This document shows positions 1 to 25,586 of a DNA stretch of 27,673 nt, piece after piece; within the stretch, counting starts at the first letter, position 1, and every line of letters starts with the position of its first letter. The stretch comes from Thermodesulfobacteriota bacterium (GTDB taxonomy: Bacteria; Desulfobacterota; DSM-4660; Desulfatiglandales; Desulfatiglandaceae): assembly GCA_034189325.1 (NCBI GenBank), contig JAXHUM010000010.1:27484-55156 (forward strand), in the 5' to 3' direction. The notes under the pieces were generated by a model. The model was not told the DNA's origin, ran no database searches, and saw only the letters and a list, made by a program, of their open reading frames with translations. The translations under genes and the position numbers were made by a program.

Positions 1-3000
1 CCAGGTCCTCCAGAATCACATCTTTCTTGTTCTGCATATTGGCGACCAGGGCTTCAGGATATTCACCGGTTTGGCTCTTTACAGCCAGAGACAAGCCTCC
101 AAGAAAGGCAAACATATCGTCATTGTCGAGCATGTAGTAGAGGTTGGATGAGCGGGTATGCATGGTTATCTTAACGTCTTTGAGATTGCTCTTATAGGCG
201 CTTTTCAAGGGTTTCCCCCAGATCTTGTCGCCGTAGGCAAAGGAATAATGGTGAATAAAGACGTCCGCTATTTCCTGGTCATCTTCCCACACGCCACTGT
301 TTGGTATCAGTTCCTGAAGAGCATGAGAGTATGCGCCCGGCATGGGGCCGAAGACCCTGGCCCGGCTCAAATCGTGTGCCTCCTCTTTGTTGTAGCCCCT
401 TTCGAGGAGGGTCAGTTCAATTTTGTTGTTATTCAGGGCAATAAAATTCTCCACATCCTTAAGGGCGCCTGCCATTCTTACGGCCCTGTCCAGGAGCTTT
501 ATGATCTGGGCATAGCTGTCTCGAAAAAGCCCGGATGTCTGCACAAGGACATCGATCCTGGGTCTTTTGAGAAGTGCCCCTGAAACCGGTTTTAAGTCCA
601 CTACCTTGTCTTTGGAGTCCCATACAGGTGTGATGCCGAGAAGATTCAGTATGGCCGCGACGCTTGCGCCCTCATTTCTCTGAAGTTCAGTGCTCCAGAG
701 TATCATGCCCAGTTTGTCGGGATAGGACCCATGCTTTTCCCTGTATCCCTCGATCATTTCATCCGCCAGCTTCTTCCCGACAACAAAGGCCTCTTTAGAA
801 GGTACCTTGTCAATGTTGAAGCCGTAAAAGTTGCGACCGGTCGGTATTGCTTCCGGGTTACGCACAGGGTCATTTCCCTCTCCGGGTGGTATGAACTCAC
901 CATTCAATGCTTTCAGAAGAGACCCGATCTCCGACTTGCCGCATGCTTTCAGCCTCGCCCTTAAATCATGTTTGTCGATCTCCGGGCTATTGAGACAAAC
1001 CACATCCCCAAGATCATCAAGTGGATCTCCCTTGGGTGATACCCCGAAGGTGTGCAGACCGTATGGGATCAGCTTTTCCTGTAGTTCGAGGATATAATGC
1101 TCTACCTTCTCGACAGCATCATCATCAATGCTTTTCAGACCAAGATCTCGGTCAAGGCCAAGTTCCCTGATCAGCCTTTGAACTCTCTTAAGCTTTTCAT
1201 CCGCAAGGGCGTTGTCCATCACATGGGCATTGTGATATTCATCTATAAGAGCTGTGAGTTCACGGTACTCAATATAGGATCCTCCCTTTTTGAGAGGCGG
1301 GATCAGATGATCAATGATAACTCCACGGCCCCTGCGTTTTGCCTGGATCCCTTCGCCGACATTATCTACAATATAGGGGTAGATATTGGGTATATCCTGG
1401 ATCAGTGTTTCTGGAGGGCATGATAATGAGAGGCCGATCTGTTTGCCGGGGAGCCATTCATGGGTCCCGTGTTTCCCAAGGCTGATAATTGCGTCCGCCT
1501 TGAATCTCTTTTTCAGCCAGAAATAGAAGGCGATATACTGATGATGGGGATAGACCATGGGATCGTGATACAGGTTTTCAGGATCTTCACCAAAGCCCCT
1601 CGAGGGTTGAGGCAGGAGAAGTATGTTGCCAAGATCAACGATCGGAATAATGATCTCCCGGTTCTTTATCATGATATTGGAATCCTCAGGCCTGCCCCAC
1701 TGGCGAATCATCTCTTTCTGAAAAAGACCCGGCAATTCCCGGAACCATTCCTGATACAAAGACAGGGGTATCCTGATGATATTTCCACCGGCCGTCAGTT
1801 TATCAAGTTCTCCGGGTGCCCATGAACCGACATTGCGTCCGCCGAGGAGGATCTTTTCTTTTATCTCTTCCTCTGACGGTAATTCCCCTTTCATGTCGTA
1901 ACCCTTTTCTTTCATCGCCGGAAGGATTTGAGAAAGAGACGTAAACAGGTTCAGGTAACTTGCTCCGACATTTTGTTTTCCAGGCGGGTGGTTCCAGTAG
2001 AGGATGGCAATCTTTTTTTCCTTATTCGGTTTCACCTGAAGCGTGTGCCATGCTTTTATTCTCCTGACCATAAAATCTATGTTAGCTGGCATGGGGACGG
2101 TATCGTAAACGACCTCGGTCATTCCCTTGAGACGGGCGGCTGTTTTTCCTCCCACCATGGAAGGTTCCATGGCTCCATTCTGTTCCGGTATGCACACCTG
2201 CCATGCAACCCTTAAGGGAGAGATCCCTGCCTCGGATTCTTGCCACTGGTCAATGGTTATGGAATGGGCCTGAAGGGGCATAAAGACCGGGGCGTTTATC
2301 CGGCAAAGCAAGCTCCTAGTCTTCTCATCAAAACCCCTCAGGAATCTAAAGGCAAAGCCACAGATTATTTGAACCCGGGGTTTCCCCTTTTCATCCAGGA
2401 AGTATTTTTTCAGAGATTCGTAGTAGGGCGGCCTTCCAAAGACAGGCAGGACGTTGATCCCTTCTTTTTCCAGTGTCCGGATCAAATGAATCTCTATCTT
2501 GCCCCTCTCCTTTGATACGGATGTAGCGAATGTGTGTATGCCCACCCAAAATCCATCTTGATGATATTCCTCTCTATTGCGGTACCATCCAAGATACTCA
2601 TCGAAACCGGAAAAGATCTTTGGCCCGTCAGGATGGAAGATGCCTGACTCGGGCAATGTAAAGGGTTTTTCATATGCGACCTTTTCTCCATTAATTGACA
2701 AGACCATGAAAATCAGGTTTTTGATATTTTCAAGAGTAGGGGGAGAGTAATACTGTTCTGCCCGAAGATCCGGGTGAAGGCCTTTCTTTTTCATTTTATC
2801 AGCAAGGTGCGCGCACCGAAGGCTGTAGATTTTTGTCTTCTTATCCTTCAGATTGGGGGCTAGAAAAACATCAACATCCCTGTTCATAAAATCAGCCAGT
2901 AGAATGTGTGATTCATGTATCTGATCACCCTTTACCCTGTTATTTCTTATTTCCTGATCCGTGTAGAATTGAAAGGAGTATTTCTCGTTGATATGGGAGA

Positions 3001-3151
3001 TCTTTTCAATATCCCTGAATGCACGAGCTACCGTAAGGCTGTCTCCAGCCATGATGACCATGACGACCTTTTTCCTCTCACTACCTGCCGAAACATTTGA
3101 TGGGAGCAGGATAATGAAAATGCATAAATACAAAAACCTACTCAATCTCAT
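1..3151 (-). CDS. CobN/Mg-chelatase family protein with an N-terminal Sec signal peptide. 3' end lies beyond the left edge of the window (partial).
   Basis: The ORF track omits it because there is no stop codon inside the window. Reverse-strand translation from ATG (complement of 3149-3151) gives MRLSRFLYLCIFIILLPSNVSAGSERKK..., with a positive n-region, hydrophobic core and VSA-G cleavage-like site. It continues in frame for about 1050 aa with CobN-like stretches such as ...SLGKHGTHEWLPGKQ... and ...YPHHQYIAFYFWLKK.... The + strand ORFs across 158-2515 are short and frame-hopping, consistent with a long antisense gene. Confidence 0.8.
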   Translation of the reverse strand, partial: MRLSRFLYLCIFIILLPSNVSAGSERKKVVMVIMAGDSLTVARAFRDIEKISHINEKYSFQFYTDQEIRNNRVKGDQIHESHILLADFMNRDVDVFLAPNLKDKKTKIYSLRCAHLADKMKKKGLHPDLRAEQYYSPPTLENIKNLIFMVLSINGEKVAYEKPFTLPESGIFHPDGPKIFSGFDEYLGWYRNREEYHQDGFWVGIHTFATSVSKERGKIEIHLIRTLEKEGINVLPVFGRPPYYESLKKYFLDEKGKPRVQIICGFAFRFLRGFDEKTRSLLCRINAPVFMPLQAHSITIDQWQESEAGISPLRVAWQVCIPEQNGAMEPSMVGGKTAARLKGMTEVVYDTVPMPANIDFMVRRIKAWHTLQVKPNKEKKIAILYWNHPPGKQNVGASYLNLFTSLSQILPAMKEKGYDMKGELPSEEEIKEKILLGGRNVGSWAPGELDKLTAGGNIIRIPLSLYQEWFRELPGLFQKEMIRQWGRPEDSNIMIKNREIIIPIVDLGNILLLPQPSRGFGEDPENLYHDPMVYPHHQYIAFYFWLKKRFKADAIISLGKHGTHEWLPGKQIGLSLSCPPETLIQDIPNIYPYIVDNVGEGIQAKRRGRGVIIDHLIPPLKKGGSYIEYRELTALIDEYHNAHVMDNALADEKLKRVQRLIRELGLDRDLGLKSIDDDAVEKVEHYILELQEKLIPYGLHTFGVSPKGDPLDDLGDVVCLNSPEIDKHDLRARLKACGKSEIGSLLKALNGEFIPPGEGNDPVRNPEAIPTGRNFYGFNIDKVPSKEAFVVGKKLADEMIEGYREKHGSYPDKLGMILWSTELQRNEGASVAAILNLLGITPVWDSKDKVVDLKPVSGALLKRPRIDVLVQTSGLFRDSYAQIIKLLDRAVRMAGALKDVENFIALNNNKIELTLLERGYNKEEAHDLSRARVFGPMPGAYSHALQELIPNSGVWEDDQEIADVFIHHYSFAYGDKIWGKPLKSAYKSNLKDVKITMHTRSSNLYYMLDNDDMFAFLGGLSLAVKSQTGEYPEALVANMQNKKDVILEDL

Positions 3152-3500
3152 CCTTCATCTCCTCGGGTATGTATATGACCCGACCGTCTTTTAACTGATA
3201 GGCTATTCCCAGTTTTACTCCCTCATCTCCGCCGAGTTTACGGTTGGTCACCTTTCTTGCCGTGACCTCTTTTCCCTTCTTGGTAATGATCCGCCACTGA
3301 TGATCCCTTTTTTTCATAATCGTGATCTCGCTTTCAGGATTAAAAAAATCCAGGATCTGAAAAGTGGCCATGAGGGAGAGCAGCAGGGCCACTATGAAAA
3401 CAAGGGCCACGTCAAAAAGATTGGCTACCCCGTGCAAGGGCTCCTCCTGTTTTACTTTTAACAGATGGCCGGGACGGCTTTTAATCAGGTATTTCATCAT
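3138..3500 (-). CDS. ExbD-like biopolymer-transport / TolR-family small membrane protein. From memory it may belong to the DUF2149-type family that accompanies MotA/ExbB and CobN.
   Basis: 120 aa. Single TM with a conserved Asp (NLFDVALVFIVALLLSL), as in ExbD/TolR. The C-terminal domain is basic. It overlaps the upstream MotA/ExbB gene by 20 nt and the CobN start by 14 nt, indicating an operon. Confidence 0.6.
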   Translation of the reverse strand: MMKYLIKSRPGHLLKVKQEEPLHGVANLFDVALVFIVALLLSLMATFQILDFFNPESEITIMKKRDHQWRIITKKGKEVTARKVTNRKLGGDEGVKLGIAYQLKDGRVIYIPEEMKDEIE

Positions 3501-4149
3501 TTTCCTCTGAAGACTGAACTCCTGATCGGTTGGAAATGCTTTTTGTCATAGCTTCCGTAATCAAATTTACGTGACGCATGTCTTCAATAACCCAGCGTTC
3601 TTTGACAACGGAAAAAAAGTGCGCCGAGATTCCCAGGGCCAGCCCCACCACAGTAGTGGTGAAGGCCAGGATCAGGCTGGAGGAAAGTTGGGCCATGTTG
3701 CCCTGGGTAAGACCGGCAAGTCCGGTGCCCATTGGAATTAATGTGCCCATAAGCCCGAGACTCGGACCGATGCGTACTATGAGCCGGATCTTGTCTACCT
3801 CTTTGAGCAGTGAACACTCCTTCCGTTGATTCAGGTCCTCCACCCGTTCGTCCATGAACAGGTCGTCGCTGAAAAGGATCTCCTCCAAATCTTTTGCGTA
3901 GCCGGAAATATGCAGGGGCAGGGTTTTTCCGATCTCCTGGGGAAGGTTCTTGTTTTTCTGAATTATCTCCAGTGAATTCGCCAATAATCCATTGGAACGA
4001 AACTGTCTCCTTTTTACCCATTCAGAAAGAAAGCCTCCTGCATATATTGTTAGCCAGAGGCTTACAATAATAAGCACCACCACCACAGGGTAGAGCAGGG
4101 CCGTTGAAACAGTGTAAAGGATGGTCTGAAAGAGAGGGAAGATATTCAT
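3481..4149 (-). CDS. MotA/TolQ/ExbB proton-channel family protein
   Basis: 222 aa. N-terminal TM, a cytoplasmic loop, then the characteristic C-terminal TM pair with LGLMGTLIPMGTGLAGL...LILAFTTTVVGLALGI (MotA_ExbB signature). 4-nt overlap with the upstream gene. Confidence 0.85.
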   Translation of the reverse strand: MNIFPLFQTILYTVSTALLYPVVVVLIIVSLWLTIYAGGFLSEWVKRRQFRSNGLLANSLEIIQKNKNLPQEIGKTLPLHISGYAKDLEEILFSDDLFMDERVEDLNQRKECSLLKEVDKIRLIVRIGPSLGLMGTLIPMGTGLAGLTQGNMAQLSSSLILAFTTTVVGLALGISAHFFSVVKERWVIEDMRHVNLITEAMTKSISNRSGVQSSEENDEIPD

Positions 4150-4898
4150 GTTGATTCCCCTTTGAAAAAAAAGTTTCTAATGAATCCGACTCCTCCCAGG
4201 ATGAATAGGGCGATAACAAAGATGAATGTATTGAAAAGATCGATGTTATTTGCCGGAGTGTTGGAGCGGGCCATGACAAAGGCTGCCTTTATCTCCGGAT
4301 ACATAGGGGCAATGATAAGGGTAAAAAGAAAATAGAGGGCGGCCATGACCATTGTCACGCCGAGGAATGTATTGCCCGTCCCGGTTTTATGGCGGAAAGG
4401 AAATATCAGAACCAGAGTCAGGACGACAATACTCAAAAAGAGGGCGAAGAGGATCAGGGTCACCATTGGAGTTGACAGGGAGAAGATGGAATAGGCAAGG
4501 GTCAAATTGAGAAGAATGACCGTGACGCACACCGGACAGGGCAGGATAAGCAGCCAGACAGCCATGTGGGAATGGCCATGTTGTCGCTCCGGGTTTTGCA
4601 GGAGAAGTCTTGCTCCCCAGAAAAAAAGCCCAAGAGCCACCGCGAAATGGAGGAGCATGCCATATTGGAGCATGTCTATAAGCTTGTCTAAATAGTCCAA
4701 TAAGTTTAAATGAGAAACCAGCAAGTAGAGGCAGGCAAAAAGAACGAGGTAAACAAGCCCCGTCCCTAAAACGAGCGTTATTTTCTTTGCCGGGGAGACA
4801 GCCCGGCTGTATGTACGCGCTCCCAGCCCCAGGCCGACCTTTATTGCAAACAGGGAAAATGCGGTAAGGATTCCGCTTATCCAGAGTTGTCTCAGCAT
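4146..4898 (-). CDS. Polytopic inner-membrane protein of unknown function. From memory it may be DUF2162-like. Carries a His/Cys cluster.
   Basis: 250 aa with about 7-8 hydrophobic helices. Motif QHGHSHMAVWLLILPCPVC lies at a predicted membrane interface. Sits between the TonB receptor gene and the MotA/ExbB gene in the same operon. Confidence 0.6.
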   Translation of the reverse strand: MLRQLWISGILTAFSLFAIKVGLGLGARTYSRAVSPAKKITLVLGTGLVYLVLFACLYLLVSHLNLLDYLDKLIDMLQYGMLLHFAVALGLFFWGARLLLQNPERQHGHSHMAVWLLILPCPVCVTVILLNLTLAYSIFSLSTPMVTLILFALFLSIVVLTLVLIFPFRHKTGTGNTFLGVTMVMAALYFLFTLIIAPMYPEIKAAFVMARSNTPANNIDLFNTFIFVIALFILGGVGFIRNFFFKGEST

Positions 4899-4977
4899 GG
4901 TTGTTGATCTCCTTAGAAAAGGGGTTCGGACACATGTGCCCCGTAGTGGCCTGCCTGCTATCTTAGTTAGTGACTAT

Positions 4978-7080
4978 CTAAAAATGGTAACTTACGCCTA
5001 CTTCAACGTAGACGCCGTCTTGAACATAATAGGCGTTTCTCGGCTCGCCATCGGCAGATGTCAGTCTTCCTGTTGAGTTCTGAACATTCTCAATCTCTTC
5101 ATCAAATAGATTCTTCCCAAGCACCCAAAACTTCCAGTTCTGAGTCGTGTAAGAGATGCTTGCGTCAACGGTCGTTTTTGATCCATACTCGATGCGGTTC
5201 AAATAATCTACGTATTCAGACCCGGTATAATTCACGTCAACGCTTGATTTGAGGCCTTTTACAGGGTAGAAATCCAAGCCCATGGTGAAGGAATAGACGG
5301 GTATCCCTATGAATTCCATTCCGTTCAGGTCTTTAAGTTCCCTCACATTTGTCGGATGGACGTAGACTCGCATCTGGCCTTCGGTCCATTGTGTATCAAG
5401 ATAGGACCCGGCAAAACGGTACCCTAAAAAAGGTCGGAGTCTTCCGTCCGCTTCAAGCTCAATGCCTTTGGTCTCTGTCTCCCCGATATTCTTCACACCT
5501 TTCCAGGTCGACCCCTCGTAATAGCTTGCAAACTTGTCCTTGCACTCGGTGAAAAAGCCCGTGAGGCTGATATTCAAAGACCTACTCATCATGTGCTTAT
5601 ACCCTATTTCATAGGTAAGGGATTCCTCAGGTTTCAAGTCTCCGGGGAGGTTGTTTGGGCTGGCCTTTTCTGCGGCCCACGCGTAGTATCTCGGTGTGGG
5701 AAACCAGAAGCTTCTCCCCACGGAAACATAGATGTTTGCTTTATCCATAAAACGACAGGAAGGAGCCACAGACCATCCGAACATGGTCTTGTCCTGATCT
5801 ACCTTTGTGCCTGCCCTATCTTCAAACTCGACTTCCGCCTTATCGATCCTGCCCCCGATCCTGAGTCCCCAGTTTTCTTCCAGCAATATATCGTTATCCC
5901 AGAAAAGGCCGTATTGCTTTTCTGAGATATCAAAGTCGCCGGCCGCAGTACTTTCGTCCGGACCATATGGGTATGTCTTGCGCTGGGTGAAATCGATATC
6001 CTCACAGTTGACGCCCACAGAGGGTGTGTAGCTGATCCCACCGAAATCGAAGTTGCCTCCGCCTGAAAGGGTGAAGGCATACGTTTCTTGATCCTTGTCA
6101 TCGAGGTCGCCGCGTGTTGCGGATGAAGAGATGTAGATATCCCTTGAGTCATTATATCTTTCTTCATAATCAATGTAGGATAATGCTGAAGACGCAAAGT
6201 ACTTATCACCGGCGTGGGAAAACTCGACCGCGTAGGTTGAAACGTCCTGGTCCCTTTCATTATGCCAGACCAATGTGGGGTCGGTTTCGCTCACGGGAAA
6301 ATGGATGTTCCTCCGGTAATTGTCGAGCTGATACTGATATTTCGCGAACCCGTAGACCGTATCATGGTCGTTCGTTAAAAAATTATAACGGACGCCGAGG
6401 CGGGTTTGTTCCGAGAGGTTGTAGCCGAGCTTAAGGAGAGTTGAAAATCGTGATTTTTCTTCCTCTTCGTAGCCGTCGGTCTTATAATTTGAAGCATTTA
6501 TAAAATAATCCCATTGATTAATAGCGCCTGATAAATCAGCGTACTCCTCATGGGTATTCCACGAACCATAAGATGCTGAGAGGTTGAAGTGAACCGGTTT
6601 ATCTCGTTTTCCCTTTTTAGTGATGATATTTATCACACCCCTAGAGGAACCTGGGCCATACGCGACCCCGGCGGAACGGAGGACCTCGATCCGTTCTATC
6701 TGGCTGACAGGGATAAAACTGAAGTGGTCATACCTGTAATCACCAATCTTCTGGGGAACTCCGTCAATAAGTATGACAGGCCCGCCCGCCATGCTGCTCC
6801 CAGTACCCCTTATGGCTACTGCGTCATCCTTGGCGCTCGTGTCTATGACTCCGGGGATTTTTGTCAGGGCCTCAATGATATTCTTCGCTCCCATCTCTTC
6901 CAGTTCCTTGGCAGTAATAATGGAAATACTTGCCGGTGTATCAATCATCTTTGTTTTGTGGGTCGCCGTCACGACAACCTCTTCCAACTCATGTATTCCA
7001 TCCTCTTCTTCCTGTGCGTTACACAGTGCGGATAGGCACACCAGGGGAAAACATACCAGAACAAACATCCACTTCTTCAT
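4978..7080 (-). CDS. TonB-dependent outer-membrane receptor (plug + beta-barrel)
   Basis: 700 aa. Signal peptide MKKWMFVLVCFPLVCLSALCNAQ. TonB-box-like EEVVVTAT. Plug-domain motifs (IEALTKIPGV, IRG..., RIEVLRSAG). C-terminal aromatic terminus ...VGVSYHF. RBS AAGGAGGT lies 6 nt upstream. Confidence 0.92.
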   Translation of the reverse strand: MKKWMFVLVCFPLVCLSALCNAQEEEDGIHELEEVVVTATHKTKMIDTPASISIITAKELEEMGAKNIIEALTKIPGVIDTSAKDDAVAIRGTGSSMAGGPVILIDGVPQKIGDYRYDHFSFIPVSQIERIEVLRSAGVAYGPGSSRGVINIITKKGKRDKPVHFNLSASYGSWNTHEEYADLSGAINQWDYFINASNYKTDGYEEEEKSRFSTLLKLGYNLSEQTRLGVRYNFLTNDHDTVYGFAKYQYQLDNYRRNIHFPVSETDPTLVWHNERDQDVSTYAVEFSHAGDKYFASSALSYIDYEERYNDSRDIYISSSATRGDLDDKDQETYAFTLSGGGNFDFGGISYTPSVGVNCEDIDFTQRKTYPYGPDESTAAGDFDISEKQYGLFWDNDILLEENWGLRIGGRIDKAEVEFEDRAGTKVDQDKTMFGWSVAPSCRFMDKANIYVSVGRSFWFPTPRYYAWAAEKASPNNLPGDLKPEESLTYEIGYKHMMSRSLNISLTGFFTECKDKFASYYEGSTWKGVKNIGETETKGIELEADGRLRPFLGYRFAGSYLDTQWTEGQMRVYVHPTNVRELKDLNGMEFIGIPVYSFTMGLDFYPVKGLKSSVDVNYTGSEYVDYLNRIEYGSKTTVDASISYTTQNWKFWVLGKNLFDEEIENVQNSTGRLTSADGEPRNAYYVQDGVYVEVGVSYHF

Positions 7081-7308
7081 TAGGACCTCCTTTTACGTTT
7101 TTTGTTTATTATTTGGAGGTCTGGTGATAGCCTATTTGCGGCCGGGTTATCCAAACCTCCATTGCGGGTTAGCGATTAAAGCCGGTGGGCAGAGCGGCTT
7201 ATGGCTTGGCGGCTTTCCGCTCTGCCCTTTCTTATCCACACAGTCTGAGTTTGGAAGAATCTGAAACCCCGGCAAGCACACAGGCAATCGTGTTCATGCC
7301 TTTTGGCA

Positions 7309-7556
7309 TAAAAAAATCCCCGGACCGAAATGAATCGATCCGGGGATTTCCCTTTTTTATCCTCAAGATCCTACGGCTTCCCTCAGTCCGCGAAGGTTGT
7401 GCCATTGTTATCCAGGCAGGTCTTCTGACTCTCGGATCATCCTACTTACCGCGCCTTCCCATCTATTTTATAACAGACAGTGGCATGATGCAGTGTTCGT
7501 CCCCGATCACAGCGGCGGGTCCGTCCCCGATTTAAACGGGGTTCCCTATTAAGCTC
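7309..7556 (-). ncRNA. Cobalamin (B12) riboswitch, copy 1, with intrinsic-terminator expression platform. It is the leader of the TonB-receptor/CobN operon.
   Basis: The minus strand reads AAUAGGGAACCCCGUUUAAAUCGGGGACGGACCCGCCGCUGUGAUCGGGGACGAA...GGGAAGGCGCGG...AGUCAGAAGACCUGCCUGG. This matches the conserved AGGGAA / GCCACUG-like core and the B12 box (complement of 7405-7420). It is followed by a 12-bp hairpin (complement of 7316-7348) and a U7 tract (complement of 7310-7316). Confidence 0.85.
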
Positions 7557-7591
7557 CTCAAGAGCTCCTGAATAGAATATATGTAGTAGTA

Positions 7592-7619
7592 AGTTTAGTT
7601 AACTGCAAAAAAGAGTCAA
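7592..7619 (-). promoter_or_regulatory. Candidate sigma-70 promoter for riboswitch 1 and its operon
   Basis: Minus strand TTGACT (complement of 7614-7619), a 16-nt spacer, then TAAACT (complement of 7592-7597), about 35 nt upstream of the aptamer. The same architecture recurs before copy 2. Confidence 0.35.
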
Positions 7620-8431
7620 GAAAAAAATGCGGCTGCAGTCTAGCAACGCGAATGCCCTGCAACCCTGGCATACGACTTCAGTTTTGACCAGATTGTCATG
7701 ATCGCATCTCCGCTCTCCTTAATCGATCAGGATCAGTCCGTACAATACGTTTTCGGTGTAGTCGATTTCTGTAAATGAACCTACTTCGATTCCTATGGCG
7801 TCCAGGGAGGGCCTGACATTTGTCGGATCAAGGCATTTGCCATGTTTCCAAATTCACATGCATCGCAAAGATTACAATTGCCCGGGAAAAAACAAAAGGA
7901 TATCCTTGCCCTCCCTTCGCATCCTCAGACTGCAATCTAGGTCTCAGGCATGTTCTTCAACTTTCCTTTGGCAAGTCACCGGCTTTGCCGGGCGTCCCAG
8001 CAGAGTCTGATATTTAAGGGATAAAATGAAGATCCCTCTTGTAGTGAACCGCTCAGCCCTGCAAACAAAGGAGAGAGTTCGATAAACGATACATCAATTC
8101 CAAATCACGCAAGATAGGAACGCCAATGTCATATCATCCTGGTTCCCAAGGTCCAAAAGAAAATGTTATTCGCTCATTATGGGCACTGCCCGGGTTTTAA
8201 GGAATGTGGAACATACCCGTGAGAGTAAAGTGATGGAAGGACATCCGTCATATCACCAAGTGCCCAACGCTCCTGTCAATGCCCCCAAAATTCTCGATGG
8301 CGCAGACTGTGGTATGTAGCAAGGGTAAAAGCGTCATTCATATCACAGGCACCTACATGGGCCGGCGAAAAAACCTTGGAGGACATCAGTGTCGGTCCAG
8401 GAGATAATTTCGTTTCGACAGTTGATCGTGA

Positions 8432-8920
8432 CTACATATAATCAAACTTTCTCCAAAAATCCTTATCGCCACTTCTCCAATCAGAACCGAATCTTTTGTC
8501 ATAATGGGAGGCCATTCTATCGAGCCAACGCCACCATAAACTCTTGCCTTCCTCTTTGGCTTCCAGGACATCATTTAGATATATTGGAAGGTCAATCATT
8601 TTCTCCTTTGGCACATAAAAGGCAGCTCCTCCCTTGAATGATTTGACAGTATGCTCCGGGCTCAGGGCATTGGCGGTCAACATAACAGCTATTACTTTTT
8701 CTTTGTTTGCTATCTTTAACAGACCATATCCGTCTACACCCATAATATCCAGAATGGCCATGTCAAAATACTGAGATTCTAGTAGTTCTTTTGCTTCATT
8801 AAAGGTTGAGGCCTTTACAACATTACACATTGATAATAGTTCTTCAAGTGTTACCAATATATCGGGTTCGTCATCTACAATAAGAATTCTTTTGCCATGC
8901 AACAGGCTTTTCTTTGTCAT
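8432..8920 (-). CDS. Single-domain response regulator (CheY-like receiver) with a C-terminal Trp/Arg-rich ~45-aa tail. Sits directly downstream of B12 riboswitch copy 2.
   Basis: 162 aa. ILIVDDEPDIL (acidic pocket), AILDIMG (phospho-acceptor Asp), MLTA (conserved Thr), FKGGAAFYVPK (conserved Lys). Tail LEAKEEGKSLWWRWLDRMASHYDKRFGSDWRSGDKDFWRKFDYM. RBS CAGGAGC precedes the ATG. Confidence 0.8.
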   Translation of the reverse strand: MTKKSLLHGKRILIVDDEPDILVTLEELLSMCNVVKASTFNEAKELLESQYFDMAILDIMGVDGYGLLKIANKEKVIAVMLTANALSPEHTVKSFKGGAAFYVPKEKMIDLPIYLNDVLEAKEEGKSLWWRWLDRMASHYDKRFGSDWRSGDKDFWRKFDYM

Positions 8921-8959
8921 GATAAGTGCTCCTGATGAACTAATTTCCGTTTTTGGATG

Positions 8960-9204
8960 GAAAAATCCCCGGACCGAAGCAAATCGATCCGGGGATTTCC
9001 CTTTTTATCCTCGAAATCGTCAGGCAACCTCTGTCCGCGTAGGTCACCGCTCTCTTTGTTCAGGCAGGTCTTCTGACTTTCGGATCATCCTACTAGCCGC
9101 GCCTTCCCATCTGTTTTGTAACAGACACTGGCACAATGCTGCTTTCGTCCCCGATCACAGCGGCGGGCCCGTCCCCGAATTGAACGGGGTTCCCTATTAA
9201 GCTC
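8960..9204 (-). ncRNA. Cobalamin riboswitch, copy 2, with terminator. It is the leader of the receiver-domain gene.
   Basis: Same conserved blocks as copy 1 (AGGGAACCCCGUUCAAUUCGGGGACGGGCCCGCCGCUGUGAUCGGGGACGAA...AGUCAGAAGACCUGCCUG). Terminator hairpin is the complement of 8965-8996, followed by only 5 U. The middle stems are diverged relative to copies 1 and 3. Confidence 0.85.
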
Positions 9205-9235
9205 CATCAGGAGCGCCTGAACAGATTTTATATCC

Positions 9236-9263
9236 AGTTTAGTAAACCACGGAATTGTGTCAA
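9236..9263 (-). promoter_or_regulatory. Candidate sigma-70 promoter for riboswitch 2
   Basis: Minus strand TTGACA (complement of 9258-9263), a 16-nt spacer, then TAAACT (complement of 9236-9241). The position relative to the aptamer is the same as for copy 1. Confidence 0.35.
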
Positions 9264-9366
9264 GAGAAAAATAGTTGAGTAGCCTGGTTGCCCAATGCCT
9301 GCGCGCCGTCACGCTTTGTGGTATTCTCAAACATTCCTGAAACCCCTACCTGTTCCCTTTACGCGG

Positions 9367-9564: not shown

Positions 9565-9719
9565 AACAACCTCCTTCCTTGTCTGTGAGCATCTGAACAG
9601 GGCGGAAAGACGGAGCCCTTATGAGCCTTGATCGTCCCTATCTGTTTCTCACTATTCAGATTCCATGGGTCGATCCGGTGTTTATCTCTTTTTGGTCCTA
9701 TGGCGAAGCAGGGGACCAA

Positions 9720-9965
9720 ATAAAAAATCCCCGGACCGAAATGAATCGATCCGGGGATTTCCCTTTTTTATCCTCAAGATCCTACGGCTTCCCTCAGTCC
9801 GCGGAGGTTGGCCATCGTTATCCAGGCAGGTCTTCTGACTCTTGGATCATCCTACGTGCCGCGCCTTCCCATCCGTTTTAAACGGCCAGTGGCTTCAGGC
9901 GGCTTTCGTCCCCAATCACAGCGGCGGGTCCGTCCCCGAATTCAACGGGGTTCCCTATTAAGCTC
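9720..9965 (-). ncRNA. Cobalamin riboswitch, copy 3, with terminator
   Basis: Shares the conserved blocks. The expression platform (complement of 9722-9810) is virtually identical to copy 1. Hairpin is the complement of 9727-9759, followed by a U6 tract. A small palindromic hairpin GCUCACAUGAGC lies immediately 5' of the aptamer. Confidence 0.85.
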
Positions 9966-9986
9966 ATGTGAGCACCTGTTCTGAGA

Positions 9987-10016
9987 AAAAGTAGATCAAA
10001 TAAACAGAGGTGTCAA
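9987..10016 (-). promoter_or_regulatory. Candidate promoter for riboswitch 3
   Basis: Minus strand TTGACA (complement of 10011-10016), a 17-nt spacer, then a weak -10 TACTTT. Confidence 0.3.
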
Positions 10017-10102
10017 TGCCAAAACCACTCGTACCGAGATTTACACTCATTCAAGTTGGGGTTCTCTTCTTCAGATCAAGAATGATGCGCCTGTTTTTAC
10101 CT

Positions 10103-10222: not shown

Positions 10223-11125
10223 ATGAAACTTTGGCACCTATTTCAGATAACTCCTCAGCGAACACAAATGGAAGATCCCGGCCTTTCTCATGCTTCTGAT
10301 GAGTTTCCGGTCCCTCCTCGGAAGGCAGAAATGTTTTTGAGATCGACCATGATTGGCGTCCTCTCTATCCTCCTGATTCTCGTGGCCTGGCACCTGGTGG
10401 CCCTGATGGTGATCACTCTTAGACAAACGCCCTTTCCAACCCCCTGGGAGGTCTTGGAGCGCTTCGTACGGTTGTTGTCGGGCCATCCTCTTTACAACAA
10501 GGGGATTGAGGAGCATCTGGTCATGAGTCTGAGTCGGTGGGGCATCGGTTATCTTCTGTCGGTGATAACAGGCCTTTTGGTTGGAATGCTTCTGGGTGCC
10601 TATCGTCGCCTGCACTCCCTTTTGATGCCTGCAATTATCGTCCTCCAATTGATTCCCGGAATGGCCTGGATCCCTATTGCCATGCTCCTGTTCGGCCTTG
10701 GGGAGGAGACCACAATATTCATTATTTTCGTGACCGCCCTGCCTCCCATTATCATCGACACAACGGCCGGGATTCGGATGGTACCGAAAATCTATATCAA
10801 GGTAGCCCGGATGGTCGGCCTGAGACAGGGTGAGCTCTTTTTTCGAGTCCTGATGCCGGCGGCCCTTGTTCCGATTATCAATGGACTGCGCATCGGTTTT
10901 GCCAATGGGTGGCGTGTTCTTATTGCCGCGGAAATGATCGTGGGCGTATCAATAGGATTGGGGTATTCATTGATCCAGGCGAGATGGTCCATCGATTTTG
11001 AGGCCGCCCTTGTCTGTATTGTGATTATCTGTATTTTTGGTCTGATTATGGAAAAGGGCCTCTTCGCCCTAATCGAGCAGAGGGTTATGGCGCGCCAGGG
11101 GCTTGTAAAGGATGTCCTCACATGA
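10223..11125 (+). CDS. ABC transporter permease, NitT/TauT (SsuC/TauC/ThiX-like) family
   Basis: Six hydrophobic segments. Binding-protein-dependent permease fold (…IAAEMIVGVSIGLGYSLIQA…). The first ATG gives 300 aa. The true start may be the internal ATG at 10331 (MFLRSTMIGV…, 264 aa), which fits the family size better. 4-nt ATGA overlap with the ATPase gene. Confidence 0.8.
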   Translation: MKLWHLFQITPQRTQMEDPGLSHASDEFPVPPRKAEMFLRSTMIGVLSILLILVAWHLVALMVITLRQTPFPTPWEVLERFVRLLSGHPLYNKGIEEHLVMSLSRWGIGYLLSVITGLLVGMLLGAYRRLHSLLMPAIIVLQLIPGMAWIPIAMLLFGLGEETTIFIIFVTALPPIIIDTTAGIRMVPKIYIKVARMVGLRQGELFFRVLMPAALVPIINGLRIGFANGWRVLIAAEMIVGVSIGLGYSLIQARWSIDFEAALVCIVIICIFGLIMEKGLFALIEQRVMARQGLVKDVLT

Positions 11126-11907
11126 TCGTTGAATGCCGCGATATTTCAAAAATCTATCTCTACCCAAAGGAGCACATGGGCAGGTATGCCCTGAGAGATG
11201 TGACTATCTCTGTGGAGGAAAAGGAGTTCGTCTGTATTATCGGTCCAAACGGTTGTGGAAAGAGCACATTGCTCCACATGATCGCAGGTCTTGAAAAACC
11301 CACTCAAGGCCGAATCCTGGTCCATGGAAGACCACTCAATGGACCGTCTCCCAACCGTGGGGTTGTTTTTCAGGAACCCAGCCTTTTTCCGTGGCAAAGC
11401 GTTCTTGGAAACATTGGGTTTGGCCTCAAGGCCCAGGGAGTCCCGAGGCGTGACCGTGATAAGATATCCAGACATTATCTTGATCTGGTGGGCCTGAGAG
11501 GGTTCGACCATGCCAGACCTCATGAACTGTCCGGAGGAATGAGACAAAAGGCCGCCATTGCACGGACATTGGCGCTGGAACCTGATATTCTCCTTATGGA
11601 TGAACCTTTTGGTTCGTTGGATGAGCAGACAAAATTGAGACTCGATGTTGAGCTCCTCAACATCTGGAAGGAGGAAAAAAGGACGGTAATTTTTGTCACT
11701 CACTCTATTGAGGAGGCGATTTTGTTGGCCGACCGGATTGTCCTCTTAACCGAGCGACCCGGGACCATTCAAAAACAGCTGATTTTGTCCATGCCCAGAC
11801 CGAGGAACCTGTTTGACCCGGGAGTATCGAAGATCAGACAAGATCTCCTGGAACATTTGATCCCTGATTGTCCGACGGTCAATCAGGGTATTTCAGAGGA
11901 AGCATGA
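11122..11907 (+). CDS. ABC transporter ATP-binding protein (NitT/TauT family)
   Basis: Walker A GPNGCGKST, ABC signature LSGGMRQKAAIARTL, Walker B LLMDEPFGSLD, H-loop VTHS. Confidence 0.9.
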   Translation: MIVECRDISKIYLYPKEHMGRYALRDVTISVEEKEFVCIIGPNGCGKSTLLHMIAGLEKPTQGRILVHGRPLNGPSPNRGVVFQEPSLFPWQSVLGNIGFGLKAQGVPRRDRDKISRHYLDLVGLRGFDHARPHELSGGMRQKAAIARTLALEPDILLMDEPFGSLDEQTKLRLDVELLNIWKEEKRTVIFVTHSIEEAILLADRIVLLTERPGTIQKQLILSMPRPRNLFDPGVSKIRQDLLEHLIPDCPTVNQGISEEA

Positions 11908-11910
11908 GGT

Positions 11911-13005
11911 ATGCGGAAAGACATTGAGCATTCAGAGACGGACAAGCAGGTGCGTCGTCTCACACGAAAAGAGAAGATAGAGACCTTCAGAAAGGCGCGA
12001 AAGAGGAGAAACCGAATTATCAGAGACATACTGATGGTCGTTCCCGTGGTCGTGGGTGTGGGGCTGGGCATTATTCTTTATCAGGGTGTCAGGGAAAAAG
12101 AGAAAAGCAGAGAGAGTATTGTCTTTGCCTTTCAAGACCGCGTTGCGGACGCCCTTCCCATTGTGGCGGTCGAGAAAGGCTTTTTCAAGGCAGAGGGGCT
12201 GGATATCACGGCACGCGTGTTTTGCAGCGGCCCGGAATGCACCGAGGCCCTTATTTCCGGTGGTGCCACTTTCGGGACCATGGGTGATACCACGGCTGTT
12301 ATTCTCCTTTCCAGGAGAGCGGATGCCTTTAAAATCATCTGCTCCCACGGCGGCGGTGAAAAACGCCATAGGATCGTTGTTTCGGACAAGAGCGAAATAA
12401 GGAGCATTACCGGTCTCGAGGCAAAGAAAATAGGCGTCAAGAAGGGGACCTCCACACATGGAGGCCTTCTGAGGTTCGCCCGGAAACATGGCCTTGACCT
12501 GAGAGACTCCATTGTGGATATGTCTCCCTCTCTTCAGCTCACGGCCCTGGCGACAGGAGAATTAGACGCTATTGTGGCCAGTGAACCGACACCGTCACAG
12601 GCCGAAGAAGGAGGGTTCGGCAGGCCCCTGGCAACGCTTGAAGGCCTTGGAAACAGCTATCCCGTACTGCTGGCCGTAAAGGCCTGTTTTGCTCAAAAGC
12701 ATCCGGACGTTGTGGCAAAAGTCCTCCGTGCCCTTAATCGGGCCGAGGACTTCGTTGAGGGCCATTGGGATGAAGCCGCTGTCATTCAATCAGAGATCAA
12801 TGGGCTGGGACCCGAAGTCATAAAAAGGGCCATGGGATTTCATTCCTATTCTGTTTCATTGGACAGCAAAATCCGGAAAAGCCTGATGGCTTCGGCGCAG
12901 TTCCTTAAGACAAATGGGACTATAGACCAAATGCCCGATTTTGACGTTGCCCTGGCCCCCTCTTATCTTATGCAGGCTAGTGAAGGGGCAAGGCGTGGCG
13001 AATGA
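11911..13005 (+). CDS. ABC transporter substrate-binding protein, NMT1/THI5/SsuA-like. Membrane-anchored, with a very basic N-terminal extension.
   Basis: 364 aa. TM anchor MVVPVVVGVGLGIILY preceded by KQVRRLTRKEKIETFRKARKRRNRIIRD. The periplasmic domain has the typical two-lobe SBP pattern. It is last in a permease-ATPase-SBP operon. Confidence 0.75.
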   Translation: MRKDIEHSETDKQVRRLTRKEKIETFRKARKRRNRIIRDILMVVPVVVGVGLGIILYQGVREKEKSRESIVFAFQDRVADALPIVAVEKGFFKAEGLDITARVFCSGPECTEALISGGATFGTMGDTTAVILLSRRADAFKIICSHGGGEKRHRIVVSDKSEIRSITGLEAKKIGVKKGTSTHGGLLRFARKHGLDLRDSIVDMSPSLQLTALATGELDAIVASEPTPSQAEEGGFGRPLATLEGLGNSYPVLLAVKACFAQKHPDVVAKVLRALNRAEDFVEGHWDEAAVIQSEINGLGPEVIKRAMGFHSYSVSLDSKIRKSLMASAQFLKTNGTIDQMPDFDVALAPSYLMQASEGARRGE

Positions 13006-23712: not shown

Positions 23713-24876
23713 ATGCATGATGTGACCACATTTAGAGATCTTGCGGCAAGGGCGCAAGATCTTGCAATCATGGCTAAGGGAGATATCCCAGGTAGATTCA
23801 AGACGATCTCAGCCAATCTTGTGGAGTTTGCTGAAGGCCTTGAAAAGGGAAGCCAGTCGAGGCGAATAATCGGCGAGAGAATGGGTGAGATGTATCAGGA
23901 CACCTACCTTACCGAGAGCTGGGTGACACAGGTGTTGACTCTGGGCCAGCTGGACATCGTCGGTGTGGATTCGTTTTTTGATGCGTATAGGCAACTCATG
24001 GAAAGCATAGGCCGAGATGAAAGGCCTTCCACTGTTGAATCCACTGCGATTCTTGACACGGCACCACCGGTCAAAGCAACTACCACTGTGGTGATGGAAA
24101 GGGAGGATACGAACAAAAAGGAGAGAAAAACTTCGAGTCCCTTCAAAAAATATCAGACAGACGAAGGCAAAAAAAAGAAACTCTTGATAGCGCTCATAAT
24201 ACTCATCGTCCTAGTCATTTCAGCCGTGACTCTTTTAAGACATTTCCATAAAGGCACCTCTCAAATTCCTATGAAAAAGGCCGTTATGAAGTACAGTATT
24301 GACAGTGTTCCATCTGCGGAAGAGTCTCTTCAAGATTTCAAAACGGTTCTTCAAGGGCCGGACAAGGAGAAGGTCCTGTCTGAGCCGGACAGGCTCATTG
24401 GGGAAATACAAGCCAACCTTCAGACAAACAGTCTTGAGCAGGCCACATCCCTCATAAGGGAGATGACCTCAAAATATCCAAGGCATCCCAGAATATTCGG
24501 GATGGTCCGAGAAGTTATTTCTGGACATATGAATCTCACGGTCAAGAATATTGAGCAAAAGGATTGGGACACAGGACAGGCCCACCTGGACAAGGCGAGA
24601 CATTTCTCTTTGCATTATGGGTTTAATACGAGGAAGGTGGAAAAACTTCGTGAACGGCTGGACAGGTTGAGATACCTCGACAGGCCTCAGGACCTCGTAG
24701 GCAAGAGAATCAGTGTGGATCTCAAAGATGGAAGCATCCGAAACGGTATCGTGGTCTCTGCTTCCGCCAACAATCTGACCATGAAAGTCCGAAGAATGAT
24801 TGGAGGAGGGGTCGCCTCTTTTGTGGCAAAGGTCCAAAACTCCGACATCGAGAGCATTGATGTGTTCAGTGAATAA
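23713..24876 (+). CDS. Hypothetical bitopic membrane protein. Cytoplasmic N-domain, a Lys-rich linker, one TM, and a periplasmic C-domain.
   Basis: 387 aa. TM KKLLIALIILIVLVISAVTLL is preceded by a charged KKERKTSSPFKKYQTDEGKKKK stretch. No recognisable catalytic motif. The C-terminal ~60 aa (…GKRISVDLKDGSIRNGIVVSA…) is small-beta-barrel-like. Confidence 0.5.
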   Translation: MHDVTTFRDLAARAQDLAIMAKGDIPGRFKTISANLVEFAEGLEKGSQSRRIIGERMGEMYQDTYLTESWVTQVLTLGQLDIVGVDSFFDAYRQLMESIGRDERPSTVESTAILDTAPPVKATTTVVMEREDTNKKERKTSSPFKKYQTDEGKKKKLLIALIILIVLVISAVTLLRHFHKGTSQIPMKKAVMKYSIDSVPSAEESLQDFKTVLQGPDKEKVLSEPDRLIGEIQANLQTNSLEQATSLIREMTSKYPRHPRIFGMVREVISGHMNLTVKNIEQKDWDTGQAHLDKARHFSLHYGFNTRKVEKLRERLDRLRYLDRPQDLVGKRISVDLKDGSIRNGIVVSASANNLTMKVRRMIGGGVASFVAKVQNSDIESIDVFSE

Positions 24877-24953
24877 AGCATGTGAAAAGGGCGCATGAGA
24901 ACACCCTTTGAATGGATTAGGAAGCTTAGTTCGAGTCGATAAAGAGGGATACA

Positions 24954-25586
24954 ATGACGACAAAAGTCATGTGCCCTGAGTGTGGCGCATCTTACGGGAA
25001 TATCCAGGAACCTAGTCTTGAAAGAGGGGTCGTATGCAGCCGATGTAGAAGAGGCCCTAAGATCAGATCTGTTGGAAAAGAGAGAGAGGGGTCTTCTTCC
25101 TTCAGACAGGCCCCAAAAATTGTTTACCCAGAGTTAAGGGCCCCCAAGATCTTCTGTTCGCCGAAGCCCTGCCCGAGACTCACCGGCTGGCCGGGAGGGA
25201 TCAACATAAACAGAAAGGATCGAAACTTATTAAAATATCAAGAGATCCTATTAATTTCCATTCTCCTATCGTCAGAGCATCCAAAGAATCGATTGCGGAT
25301 GCTTTTCTTTATCAGAGATTGCAAAAGGCCCTTTGTTGTGGAGAGTCATACAATCCAGTACCCTGACTTTCCTCATGTGAGGGCCCTGACTTCCATTGCC
25401 TCTTTGAGGAATCTTCTGCTGTTTCTTGTCAATCGTAATCCTGAAATCATCCTAGATAATAATACCTACAACTGGGGTCTGGGCTTTCAGCCAAAGCGAT
25501 TGGAAGGAGATGTGGATTCTCTTTCCACGGCCCTTGTGGGAATACTCGAATCAGAAAGTCATTTTGCAGAGTCTATCAGCGGGTAG
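24954..25586 (+). CDS. Hypothetical protein with an N-terminal zinc-ribbon (CPxCG…CxxC)
   Basis: 210 aa. MTTKVMCPECGASYGN…VVCSRCRRGPK. The remainder has no recognised motif. Confidence 0.45.
   Translation: MTTKVMCPECGASYGNIQEPSLERGVVCSRCRRGPKIRSVGKEREGSSSFRQAPKIVYPELRAPKIFCSPKPCPRLTGWPGGININRKDRNLLKYQEILLISILLSSEHPKNRLRMLFFIRDCKRPFVVESHTIQYPDFPHVRALTSIASLRNLLLFLVNRNPEIILDNNTYNWGLGFQPKRLEGDVDSLSTALVGILESESHFAESISG

Follow-up and report, generated by a model that had tools for sequence, protein, structure and literature searches.

The stretch analysed here, called the window, comprises 27,673 nucleotides (nt) of contig JAXHUM010000010.1 from a Thermodesulfobacteriota bacterium; all coordinates are window positions unless a locus name precedes them. 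At positions 1-7620 its minus strand carries an operon in which a cobalamin riboswitch precedes genes for a TonB-dependent receptor, a DUF2162 membrane protein, a MotA/ExbB-type protein, a DUF2149 protein and a CobN-like protein related to the heme de-chelatase HmuS. Our present results describe this gene set as an Hmu-like module that heads an operon for anaerobic B12 synthesis. The locus belongs to a larger branch of the HmuS-type machine, which is wired to B12 sensing and cobalt-consuming biosynthesis and not to heme. The features of the operon, in the order of transcription, are these:

7592..7619, minus strand: promoter-like site TTGACT-16 nt-TAAACT, adjoining the riboswitch on its upstream side
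7398..7586, minus strand: full-length cobalamin riboswitch aptamer RF00174 (110.2 bits against a gathering threshold of 31.5, E 4e-27, model positions 1-189 of 189)
~7310..7350, minus strand: expression platform, an intrinsic terminator hairpin AAAUCCCCGGAUCGA...UCGGUCCGGGGAUUU followed by U7 (dG -31.7 kcal/mol, z -5.3)
4978..7080, minus strand: TonB-dependent receptor, 700 amino acids (aa) (Plug E 6e-22, barrel E 3e-37)
4146..4898, minus strand: DUF2162 polytopic membrane protein, 250 aa (PF09930 E 4e-38, 131.5 bits against a gathering threshold of 34.4)
3481..4149, minus strand: MotA/TolQ/ExbB-family proton-channel subunit, homologue of HmuU, 222 aa (PF01618, 37.8 bits against 22.9)
3138..3500, minus strand: DUF2149 protein, homologue of HmuV, 120 aa (PF09919 E 2e-28, 98.9 bits against 27.1)
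1..3151, minus strand: CobN/HmuS-family open reading frame (ORF), the first 1050 of 1297 codons, cut by the window edge (PF02514 E 8e-274)

The five gene families and their order had been named in a first-pass annotation made from the letters alone, and Pfam recovers all of them on the minus strand. With E-values from 2e-9 to 8e-274, the matches of the five operon genes are not due to chance. The supposition that the long CobN-like ORF lies in a single frame also holds: its 1050 codons contain no stop, whereas the other two frames are interrupted by 60 and 65. Overlaps of 4-20 nt had been claimed between all neighbours. They are present at three junctions (4, 20 and 14 nt), but the receptor and DUF2162 genes are separated by a gap of 79 nt. 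When the operon was scanned for internal terminators, terminator-like sites were no more frequent than expected by chance.

The aptamer lies in the leader, where the first-pass annotation had placed a riboswitch. Equal folding of its terminator hairpin was reached by none of 200 shuffled sequences, and since a strong hairpin with a U7 tail stands 3' of the aptamer, the switch most likely acts via transcription termination. A leader of 230 nt runs from the terminator to the receptor ATG, with the ribosome-binding site AAAGGAGG 5' of the receptor. Promoter-like matches in the region are not more numerous than chance would give; the box before riboswitch 1 recurs as the same box in the same position before a second riboswitch. 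Altogether, three riboswitch cassettes of about 82% identity are found on the minus strand within 2.7 kb (7290-7625, 8940-9270 and 9690-10030), in each, a promoter-like box precedes a cobalamin aptamer (110, 107 and 106 bits), and the terminator hairpin is the same in all three. Directly behind riboswitch 2, at 8432-8920 on the minus strand, a stand-alone receiver-domain protein of 162 aa is encoded (PF00072, 40 bits), with a tail of about 50 aa that has no family; a response regulator under control of a B12 riboswitch is unusual. The following ~850 nt up to riboswitch 1 (7587-8431) contain no convincing ORF on either strand, and riboswitch copy 3 (9994-9808) is followed by no ORF longer than 65 aa before copy 2 starts.

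In the first-pass annotation the CobN-like gene is the last one named, but the operon does not end there. The metagenomic contig L001, 99.9% identical to the window, extends it by 6.5 kb, and here the operon continues with short gaps into genes for a second receptor, cbiK, the adenosyltransferase gene cobO, an exported cbiK, a cbiL-type methylase and cbiA. The second receptor has a BtuB-like plug. The first CbiK (L001:9928-10959) is cytoplasmic and carries a C-terminal fusion to an IF-1/eIF-1A S1 domain (PF06180 E 8e-57; PF01176 70 bits). The other one (L001:11665-12660) has a signal peptide and a mature N-terminus which, unlike that of paralogues in sister loci, is not His-rich. Neither the window nor L001 contains CobS/CobT or ChlI/ChlD partner genes or an ORF of the HmuY family, and BtuCD is not found in the window.

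The full CobN-like protein, as read from L001, is 1297 aa long. Its N-terminus is of Sec type (MRLSRFLYLCIFIILLPSNVSA/GS). At the other end, an invariant CCxHxCNNP motif leads into some 80 Lys/Glu-rich residues, a hydrophobic helix and a final RRKV. The first-pass annotation had predicted a secreted CobN with a signal peptide. The Sec signal peptide is there, but the protein has a C-terminal transmembrane (TM) anchor as well, so it is fixed on the periplasmic side of the inner membrane and not freely secreted. This topology is a family trait: 71 of 74 full-length members have a signal-peptide-like hydrophobic N-terminus, 71 of 74 a C-terminal TM helix, and none of the 74 has a TM-grade segment in its interior. 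The CobN homologue is by these predictions extracytoplasmic, hence not the cytoplasmic CobNST chelatase, as had been proposed for it.

This topology bears directly on the plainest account of the locus, namely that a BtuB-type B12 receptor and its private ExbB/ExbD pair happen to lie beside a conventional CobN cobaltochelatase. Source databases do label the family 'cobaltochelatase subunit CobN', and the MotA_ExbB match in Pfam is genuine. We nevertheless give this account almost no credence. The signal peptide and anchor aside, the CobN-like protein stays below all CobN equivalog cutoffs (its 1050-aa fragment scores 756 bits against 1619 with the best NCBIfam model and 580 against 822 with TIGR02257), CobS/CobT or ChlI/ChlD partners are lacking, and the chelatase employed at this locus is CbiK. 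Moreover, DUF2149 is not ExbD, the MotA/DUF2149 pair coexists with canonical ExbB-ExbD-TonB and occurs in archaea (see below), and the receptor stays at 102 bits where the BtuB cutoff (TIGR01779) is 599.7. Topology and neighbourhood data effectively exclude such a combination of ordinary parts.

In a PDB search with the full-length protein, HmuS (9d26) was the best match with 505 bits, CobN following narrowly with 498 bits. Residues 736-1235 align with HmuS residues 929-1433, that is, through the HmuS-specific C-terminal extension, whereas the central residues ~220-715 are nearer to CobN (239 bits vs 186 bits for HmuS) and a DxDD motif is CobN-like. We place the protein with HmuS on the strength of their common architecture and partner genes. 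Of the catalytic dyads at site 2 of HmuS (His-538/Glu-577 and His-1209/Asp-1208), the equivalents of H538, E577 and D1208 are invariant in the family; of the two axial ligands at heme site 1, Met-79 and His-254, so is the equivalent of Met-79 (M89). The position of H1209 is occupied by Asp or Gly. The column of His-254 is variable (L/A/Y/S/Q/G), with Leu or Phe in the window protein, an assignment that is moderately secure as the alignment is gapped there. The Met-rich insertion of HmuS, residues ~686-928, has no counterpart, the query jumping from 706 to 736.

HmuS of Bacteroides thetaiotaomicron (PDB 9d26; Nath et al., EMBO J 2025) converts heme into protoporphyrin IX and Fe(II); it is membrane-bound, periplasmic, ATP-independent and NADH-dependent (PMC12583661). 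Consequently, the module called functionally uncharacterised in the first-pass annotation is not so in its Bacteroidota branch. The hmu operon of Bacteroidota, hmuYRSTUV, shares parts with the window module (PMC11681262). A search with an HmuS fragment gave only C-terminal half-proteins, the Bacteroides gene being frameshifted or fragmented in assemblies; the HmuS sequence was rebuilt from the B. thetaiotaomicron-like locus L082 with an approximate junction (1464 vs 1469 aa). Hidden Markov models (HMMs) of our families recognise HmuS (E 4e-231), HmuU (E 3e-46), HmuV (E 1e-33) and HmuR (E 1e-77) of this locus. The DUF2162 HMM does not match HmuT (E 0.5), a protein that lacks a Cys motif and belongs to no Pfam family. 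The claimed resemblance to hmuR-hmuS-hmuTUV loci therefore stands for S, U, V and R but not for HmuT, to which DUF2162 is unrelated. The Bacteroides locus contains HmuY and no cobalamin riboswitch.

With four homologous proteins, HmuS as the top PDB match and the Met-79 equivalent kept, the operon might be a true Hmu orthologue that takes up heme and removes its iron, the B12 riboswitch serving cross-regulation of tetrapyrrole metabolism. P. gingivalis offers a parallel: B12 boxes are reported inside its hmu operon (PMC11681262), and a B12 riboswitch precedes the receptor of its iht locus and a CbiK-like partner (PMC3764172). Several observations make this quite improbable. The HmuY hemophore and the Met-rich insertion are both missing; the His-254 ligand varies, Asp stands at the position of H1209, and an unrelated family takes the place of HmuT. 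In addition, the operon runs into cbi genes, riboswitch gating is the rule in the family and missing from the Bacteroides locus, and the corrinoid-specific enzyme CbiZ is encoded next to the chelatase gene in sister loci.

DUF2162 has about seven predicted helices, with the motif PCPVC at residues 120-124 inside the membrane. In the first-pass annotation it was described by the motifs HGHSH…CPVC; PCPVC is indeed kept unchanged in bacteria and archaea alike, whereas HGHSH shows no conservation. No meaningful relative was found by a profile search of the PDB, and a single-sequence AlphaFold2 model (predicted local distance difference test, pLDDT, 54) is too low in confidence for fold comparison. 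The MotA/ExbB protein shows conserved ExbB/TolQ-type motifs, GPxLGLxGTLIPMGTGLA and AFTTTVVGL. DUF2149 is composed of a single N-terminal TM helix with an invariant Asp30 (NLFD) and a small C-terminal domain. Its earlier designation as ExbD-like has to be given up as a statement of homology: PF02472 does not match at E<=10, a PDB profile search returns neither ExbD nor TolR, and hhalign against canonical ExbD of the same loci gives a probability of 0.4%. An AlphaFold2 model from a 39-sequence alignment (pLDDT 55) is too low to judge an ExbD-type fold. At the level of sequence, the likeness of DUF2149 to ExbD (one TM helix, invariant Asp) is an analogy and not detectable homology.

A full HMMER scan for DUF2149 gave 513 clusters at 50% identity. 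The archaeal module of CobN, MotA, DUF2149 and DUF2162, which the first-pass annotation had mentioned, is real. In an Archaeoglobus-like locus (L084:6685-16130), the core DUF2162-MotA-DUF2149-CobN is present without a receptor, and behind it lie genes for a DtxR-type repressor and a metal importer of ZnuABC type (ZnuA/ABC/ABC-3). The CobN protein of this locus, 1614 aa long, has a C-terminal anchor and CCxHxC, and its DUF2162 has PCPVC.

The window receptor has a signal peptide, a TonB box (EEVVVTA) and a C-terminal Phe, and its closest solved relatives are the plugs of CirA and FhuA. The second receptor has a TonB box as well (APMVVTA). Both are therefore presumably energised by TonB encoded elsewhere. 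No tonB gene occurs in the window or in the 6.5-kb extension, in line with the earlier statement that the operon has none. This absence says little, because the receptors carry TonB boxes and because sister loci possess their own ExbB-ExbD-TonB: at L052:8225-10240 and L050:7891-9776 a canonical trio lies co-directionally beside the module, additional to the MotA/DUF2149 pair. These separate trios and the archaeal core that has no receptor argue that the pair is not simply an energiser of the receptor, and it probably serves the chelatase or permease rather than the receptor. Class I chelatases require an AAA+ motor, and the periplasm is devoid of ATP; a proton-driven stator that acts on a tethered enzyme would be an attractive idea for this reason.

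A scan of species-representative genomes yielded 432 stretches, and 78 loci, mostly of Desulfobacterota, were analysed. In the following, R denotes the receptor, T DUF2162, U MotA/ExbB, V DUF2149, S the CobN-like protein, Z BtuF-CbiZ and K CbiK. R and T-U-V-S are together almost everywhere in the 78 loci, arranged as R-T-U-V-S or R-S-T-U-V. Full-coverage relatives of S with about 1300 aa are found in Desulfobacterota, Poribacteria, Hydrogenedentota, Verrucomicrobiota, Synergistaceae and an anammox metagenome-assembled genome, all annotated as 'cobaltochelatase CobN'. Of eight loci compared with Rfam, five have a riboswitch upstream of the module, and an nhmmer model built from Rfam-confirmed riboswitches matches in 51 loci. 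By a strict rule (same strand, at or inside the cluster, upstream of S), a riboswitch is present in 37 of 58 evaluable clusters; by eye, one lies upstream of the chelatase gene in the same operon in at least 44 of the 78 loci. The tie to cobalamin that had been noticed in the window is thus general.

Some loci contain more than one copy of the chelatase gene. At least two exported CobN/HmuS-like paralogues per locus are encoded in L011, L021, L028, L033, L036, L038, L039, L076 and L078, sometimes with a separate T-U-V set or riboswitch per paralogue. In contig L068 (CAYVVQ010000047.1), the module is 42% identical to that of the window, but at the nucleotide level the contig has no similarity to the window; that both measure 27,673 nt is a coincidence.

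The link to corrinoids is strengthened by an exported fusion protein of about 685 aa, composed of a signal peptide, BtuF (Peripla_BP_2) and the adenosylcobinamide amidohydrolase CbiZ (L058:7925-9988, L025:7947-10004, L072:7084-9255, L043:1730-3742 and ~30 other loci). Its signal peptide would place a corrinoid-specific cobinamide amidohydrolase in the periplasm. Z is located directly upstream of S in 30 of the 34 clusters having the fusion, in clades 42-55% identical to the window protein. Elsewhere it is paired with BtuCD-type genes (ZCD or CDZ). This double pairing suggests that S together with DUF2162-MotA-DUF2149 might stand in for an importer of whole corrinoids.

On this basis the system can be viewed as one of intact-corrinoid salvage. 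The receptor would import cobamides or cobinamide, S would be only a periplasmic acceptor or chaperone, DUF2162 and MotA/DUF2149 would form a proton-driven corrin importer alternative to BtuCD, and BtuF-CbiZ of sister loci would trim the substrate to cobyric acid. Apart from the adjacency of Z to S, and of Z to FecCD/ABC genes elsewhere, such salvage agrees with the fact that the CbiZ product is a pathway intermediate and that corrin demetallation is without precedent. A comparable hand-over has been proposed for P. gingivalis, where HmuS would pass heme to HmuTUV for transport across the inner membrane (PMC13227078). We consider it possible, though on the unlikely side, and it is the main competitor of the reading preferred below. 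The commonest neighbours of the module are early, cobalt-consuming genes (CbiK, CbiL-type) and not late salvage genes, the His/Glu/Asp of the chelatase site are invariant, and CbiZ is missing from the window's own clade. DUF2162 is furthermore small (~250 aa) and has a thiol motif of CxxC type, and the archaeal core adjoins genes for metal-ion uptake.

Neighbouring genes were surveyed with Pfam, taking the 150 ORFs outside the module that lie nearest to it on the same strand. CbiK is represented 21 times, TP_methylase 10 times, FecCD and TonB_C five times each, CbiA four times, CbiC three times and CbiD twice; CbiM/N/Q or NicO are not among the 25 commonest neighbour families. In 14 clusters K directly follows S, and in the loci inspected this CbiK lacks a signal peptide, which marks it as a Co(II)-consuming cytoplasmic enzyme. 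Eight exported CbiK paralogues have His-rich N-termini, with sister loci L005, L014, L036, L046, L053 and L073 among their sources (e.g. HAHAHGDGHGHSHGHQEH); such mature N-termini suggest binding of metal in the periplasm.

These His-rich tails bring in another explanation, in which no tetrapyrrole takes part. The receptor would take up Co(II) or a cobalt-metallophore complex, the CobN-like protein and exported CbiK would be metal chaperones, and DUF2162 would be a Co(II) permease. For TonB-dependent receptors under control of a B12 riboswitch, specificity for cobalt has been predicted (PMC7689651). The invariant PCPVC, the lack of any other recurrent cobalt transporter in the neighbourhoods, and the DtxR and ZnuABC-type genes beside the archaeal core point in the same direction. 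A chelatase fold of 1300 aa with a conserved tetrapyrrole site is, however, much protein to spend on simple metal chaperoning, the close adjacency of BtuF-CbiZ indicates corrinoids, and the family invariably keeps the equivalent of Met-79, which in HmuS is an axial ligand of heme. We thus consider it improbable that the system takes up free or ligand-bound cobalt.

We tentatively favour, with confidence somewhat short of even, the following reading: the operon encodes a cobalamin-repressed envelope system of Hmu type, which feeds the cell's own anaerobic B12 synthesis with cobalt drawn from external cobalt tetrapyrroles, that is, corrinoids. It is favoured because early cobalt-consuming genes, CbiK and CbiL-type methylases, dominate the neighbourhood, because the catalytic His/Glu/Asp of the chelatase are kept, and because DUF2162 has a thiol motif while the archaeal core stands in a context of metal uptake. 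The sequences establish the gene content, the riboswitch and its terminator, the extracytoplasmic and anchored topology, the kinship with HmuS, HmuU and HmuV, the retained catalytic residues and the conservation of the neighbourhoods. We infer the substrate, the direction of the reaction, the cargo moved across the inner membrane and the target of the motor pair; the same applies to the description as an 'uptake and remodelling machine' given in the first-pass annotation.

The proposed mechanism would work as follows. At low adenosylcobalamin the terminator of the riboswitch would not form and the operon would be transcribed. The TonB-dependent receptor, energised by TonB encoded elsewhere, would bring the substrate to the periplasm, where in sister loci exported BtuF-CbiZ may first strip the nucleotide loop of the corrinoid. 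The CobN/HmuS-type protein, held by its C-terminal helix on the outer face of the inner membrane, would bind the substrate and, by analogy with HmuS, remove the metal. DUF2162 would carry Co(II) across the inner membrane by means of its intramembrane PCPVC. The MotA/ExbB-DUF2149 pair would use the proton gradient for conformational work on the chelatase or permease, replacing the AAA+ partners of class I chelatases. Finally, the cytoplasmic CbiK encoded downstream would insert the cobalt into sirohydrochlorin.

Several points weigh against harvesting of cobalt from corrinoids. Removal of cobalt from the corrin ring is chemically very hard, and an enzyme for it is not known; our literature search turned up no report of a corrinoid de-chelatase. 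The product of CbiZ is cobyric acid, which the pathway normally forms as an intermediate; this fits import of the intact ring better than demetallation, and so does the pairing of BtuF-CbiZ with BtuCD-type genes, while CbiZ itself is absent from the clade of the window. The Asp at the H1209 position is that of the insertion enzyme CobN. Since the window receptor is below every NCBIfam equivalog cutoff, its substrate cannot be inferred from homology.

A bolder extension of the cobalt-harvesting reading, which we regard as doubtful, is that DUF2162-MotA/ExbB-DUF2149-CobN constitutes an ancient ATP-independent tetrapyrrole (de)chelatase shared by archaea and bacteria, with a proton-driven stator instead of the AAA+ motor of class I chelatases. 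The stator would pull the membrane-tethered enzyme via its charged stalk and C-terminal helix, PCPVC and CCxHxC would form a transmembrane relay for Co(II) or electrons, and the B12-gated form would mine the cobalt of corrinoids.

An Hmu-type system as such is already known. Its B12-gated branch, embedded in cbi genes, equipped with DUF2162 and often with periplasmic BtuF-CbiZ, is not described in the literature searched, though genes of this kind may be on record in Rodionov et al. 2003 (JBC). The B12-wired branch is probably older than the heme branch. Work on HmuS in 2025 demonstrated reverse operation of a class I chelatase homologue that is located in the periplasm and needs no ATP, and nature provides controls for the mechanism: archaeal forms without an outer membrane, bacterial forms with a separate ExbB-ExbD-TonB, and a permease that differs between the branches. 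If the machine demetallates a cobalt tetrapyrrole, it would be the first such enzyme, and it would give cells of sulfidic habitats a new way to acquire cobalt. Harvesting of cobalt from corrinoids would explain how B12 producers are supplied where sulfide removes the free ion, and would present a further sink in environmental corrinoid cycling. If, instead, trimmed corrinoids are imported, a new proton-driven alternative to BtuCD would be at hand. Either way, hundreds of these proteins are mis-annotated as 'cobaltochelatase subunit CobN' by genome pipelines.

Two further parts of the window lie outside the operon. Divergent from the riboswitch cassettes, on the plus strand at 10223-13005 and about 230 nt from riboswitch 3, an ABC transporter of NitT/TauT type is encoded (permease, ATPase and NMT1/THI5-like binding protein). 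At 23713-25586, two ORFs of 387 and 210 aa without a Pfam family are located upstream of a 572-aa SPFH/Band-7 protein.

Five known systems invite comparison. With CobNST and ChlHID (CobN 9uk9, 7c6o; ChlH 4zhj), the window protein shares the PF02514 domain, a central part nearer to CobN and the DxDD motif. Contrary to these enzymes, it is predicted to be extracytoplasmic and tethered, no AAA+/vWA partner genes accompany it, and its host inserts cobalt by CbiK. The stators ExbB-ExbD-TonB, TolQ-TolR-TolA and MotA-MotB resemble the motor pair in combining a channel subunit with a small overlapping gene, whose product is single-pass and has an intramembrane Asp (NLFD vs PLID of ExbD). They differ from it in that no homology of DUF2149 to ExbD can be detected, the operon has no TonB- or TolA-like gene, and the pair occurs also in archaea that have no outer membrane.

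The ihtABCDE locus of P. gingivalis (PMC3764172) is similar to the window operon in having a receptor behind a B12 riboswitch and an exported homologue of tetrapyrrole chelatases, represented in L001 by the exported CbiK. For Chlorobaculum, the role of chelatase genes adjoining a B12 receptor has been a matter of speculation (PMC8620254). Another exported chelatase of CbiK type, CbiK-P, is encoded next to a B12-riboswitch-controlled receptor in Desulfovibrio vulgaris. Unlike the system described here, iht and CbiK-P employ class II CbiK and ABC importers and lack the CobN/HmuS-MotA-DUF2149-DUF2162 core. With BtuB-BtuFCD and CbiZ the window system has the riboswitch-controlled receptor in common, and in sister loci BtuF and CbiZ are fused and exported; the receptor is nevertheless no BtuB equivalog, BtuCD is outside the window's gene set, and CbiZ of the sister loci is periplasmic and lies beside a chelatase homologue.

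The closest relative is Hmu. Both systems comprise a TonB-dependent receptor, HmuU and HmuV or their homologues, and an exported, anchored CobN-family protein with a C-terminal extension (C-x4-C-[DN]-N) before the TM anchor and with equivalents of H538, E577, D1208 and Met-79. In contrast to Hmu, the window system has neither HmuY nor the Met-rich insertion, does not keep His-254, has Asp in place of H1209 and additional Cys/His in its C-terminal motif (CCxHxC), and uses DUF2162 with PCPVC instead of the unrelated HmuT. It has the gene order R-T-U-V-S, is controlled by a B12 riboswitch and is embedded in cbi genes. Because the features that define HmuS are only partly kept, HmuY is missing and the Bacteroides locus has no riboswitch, the window system is a sister of the heme system and not a member of it.

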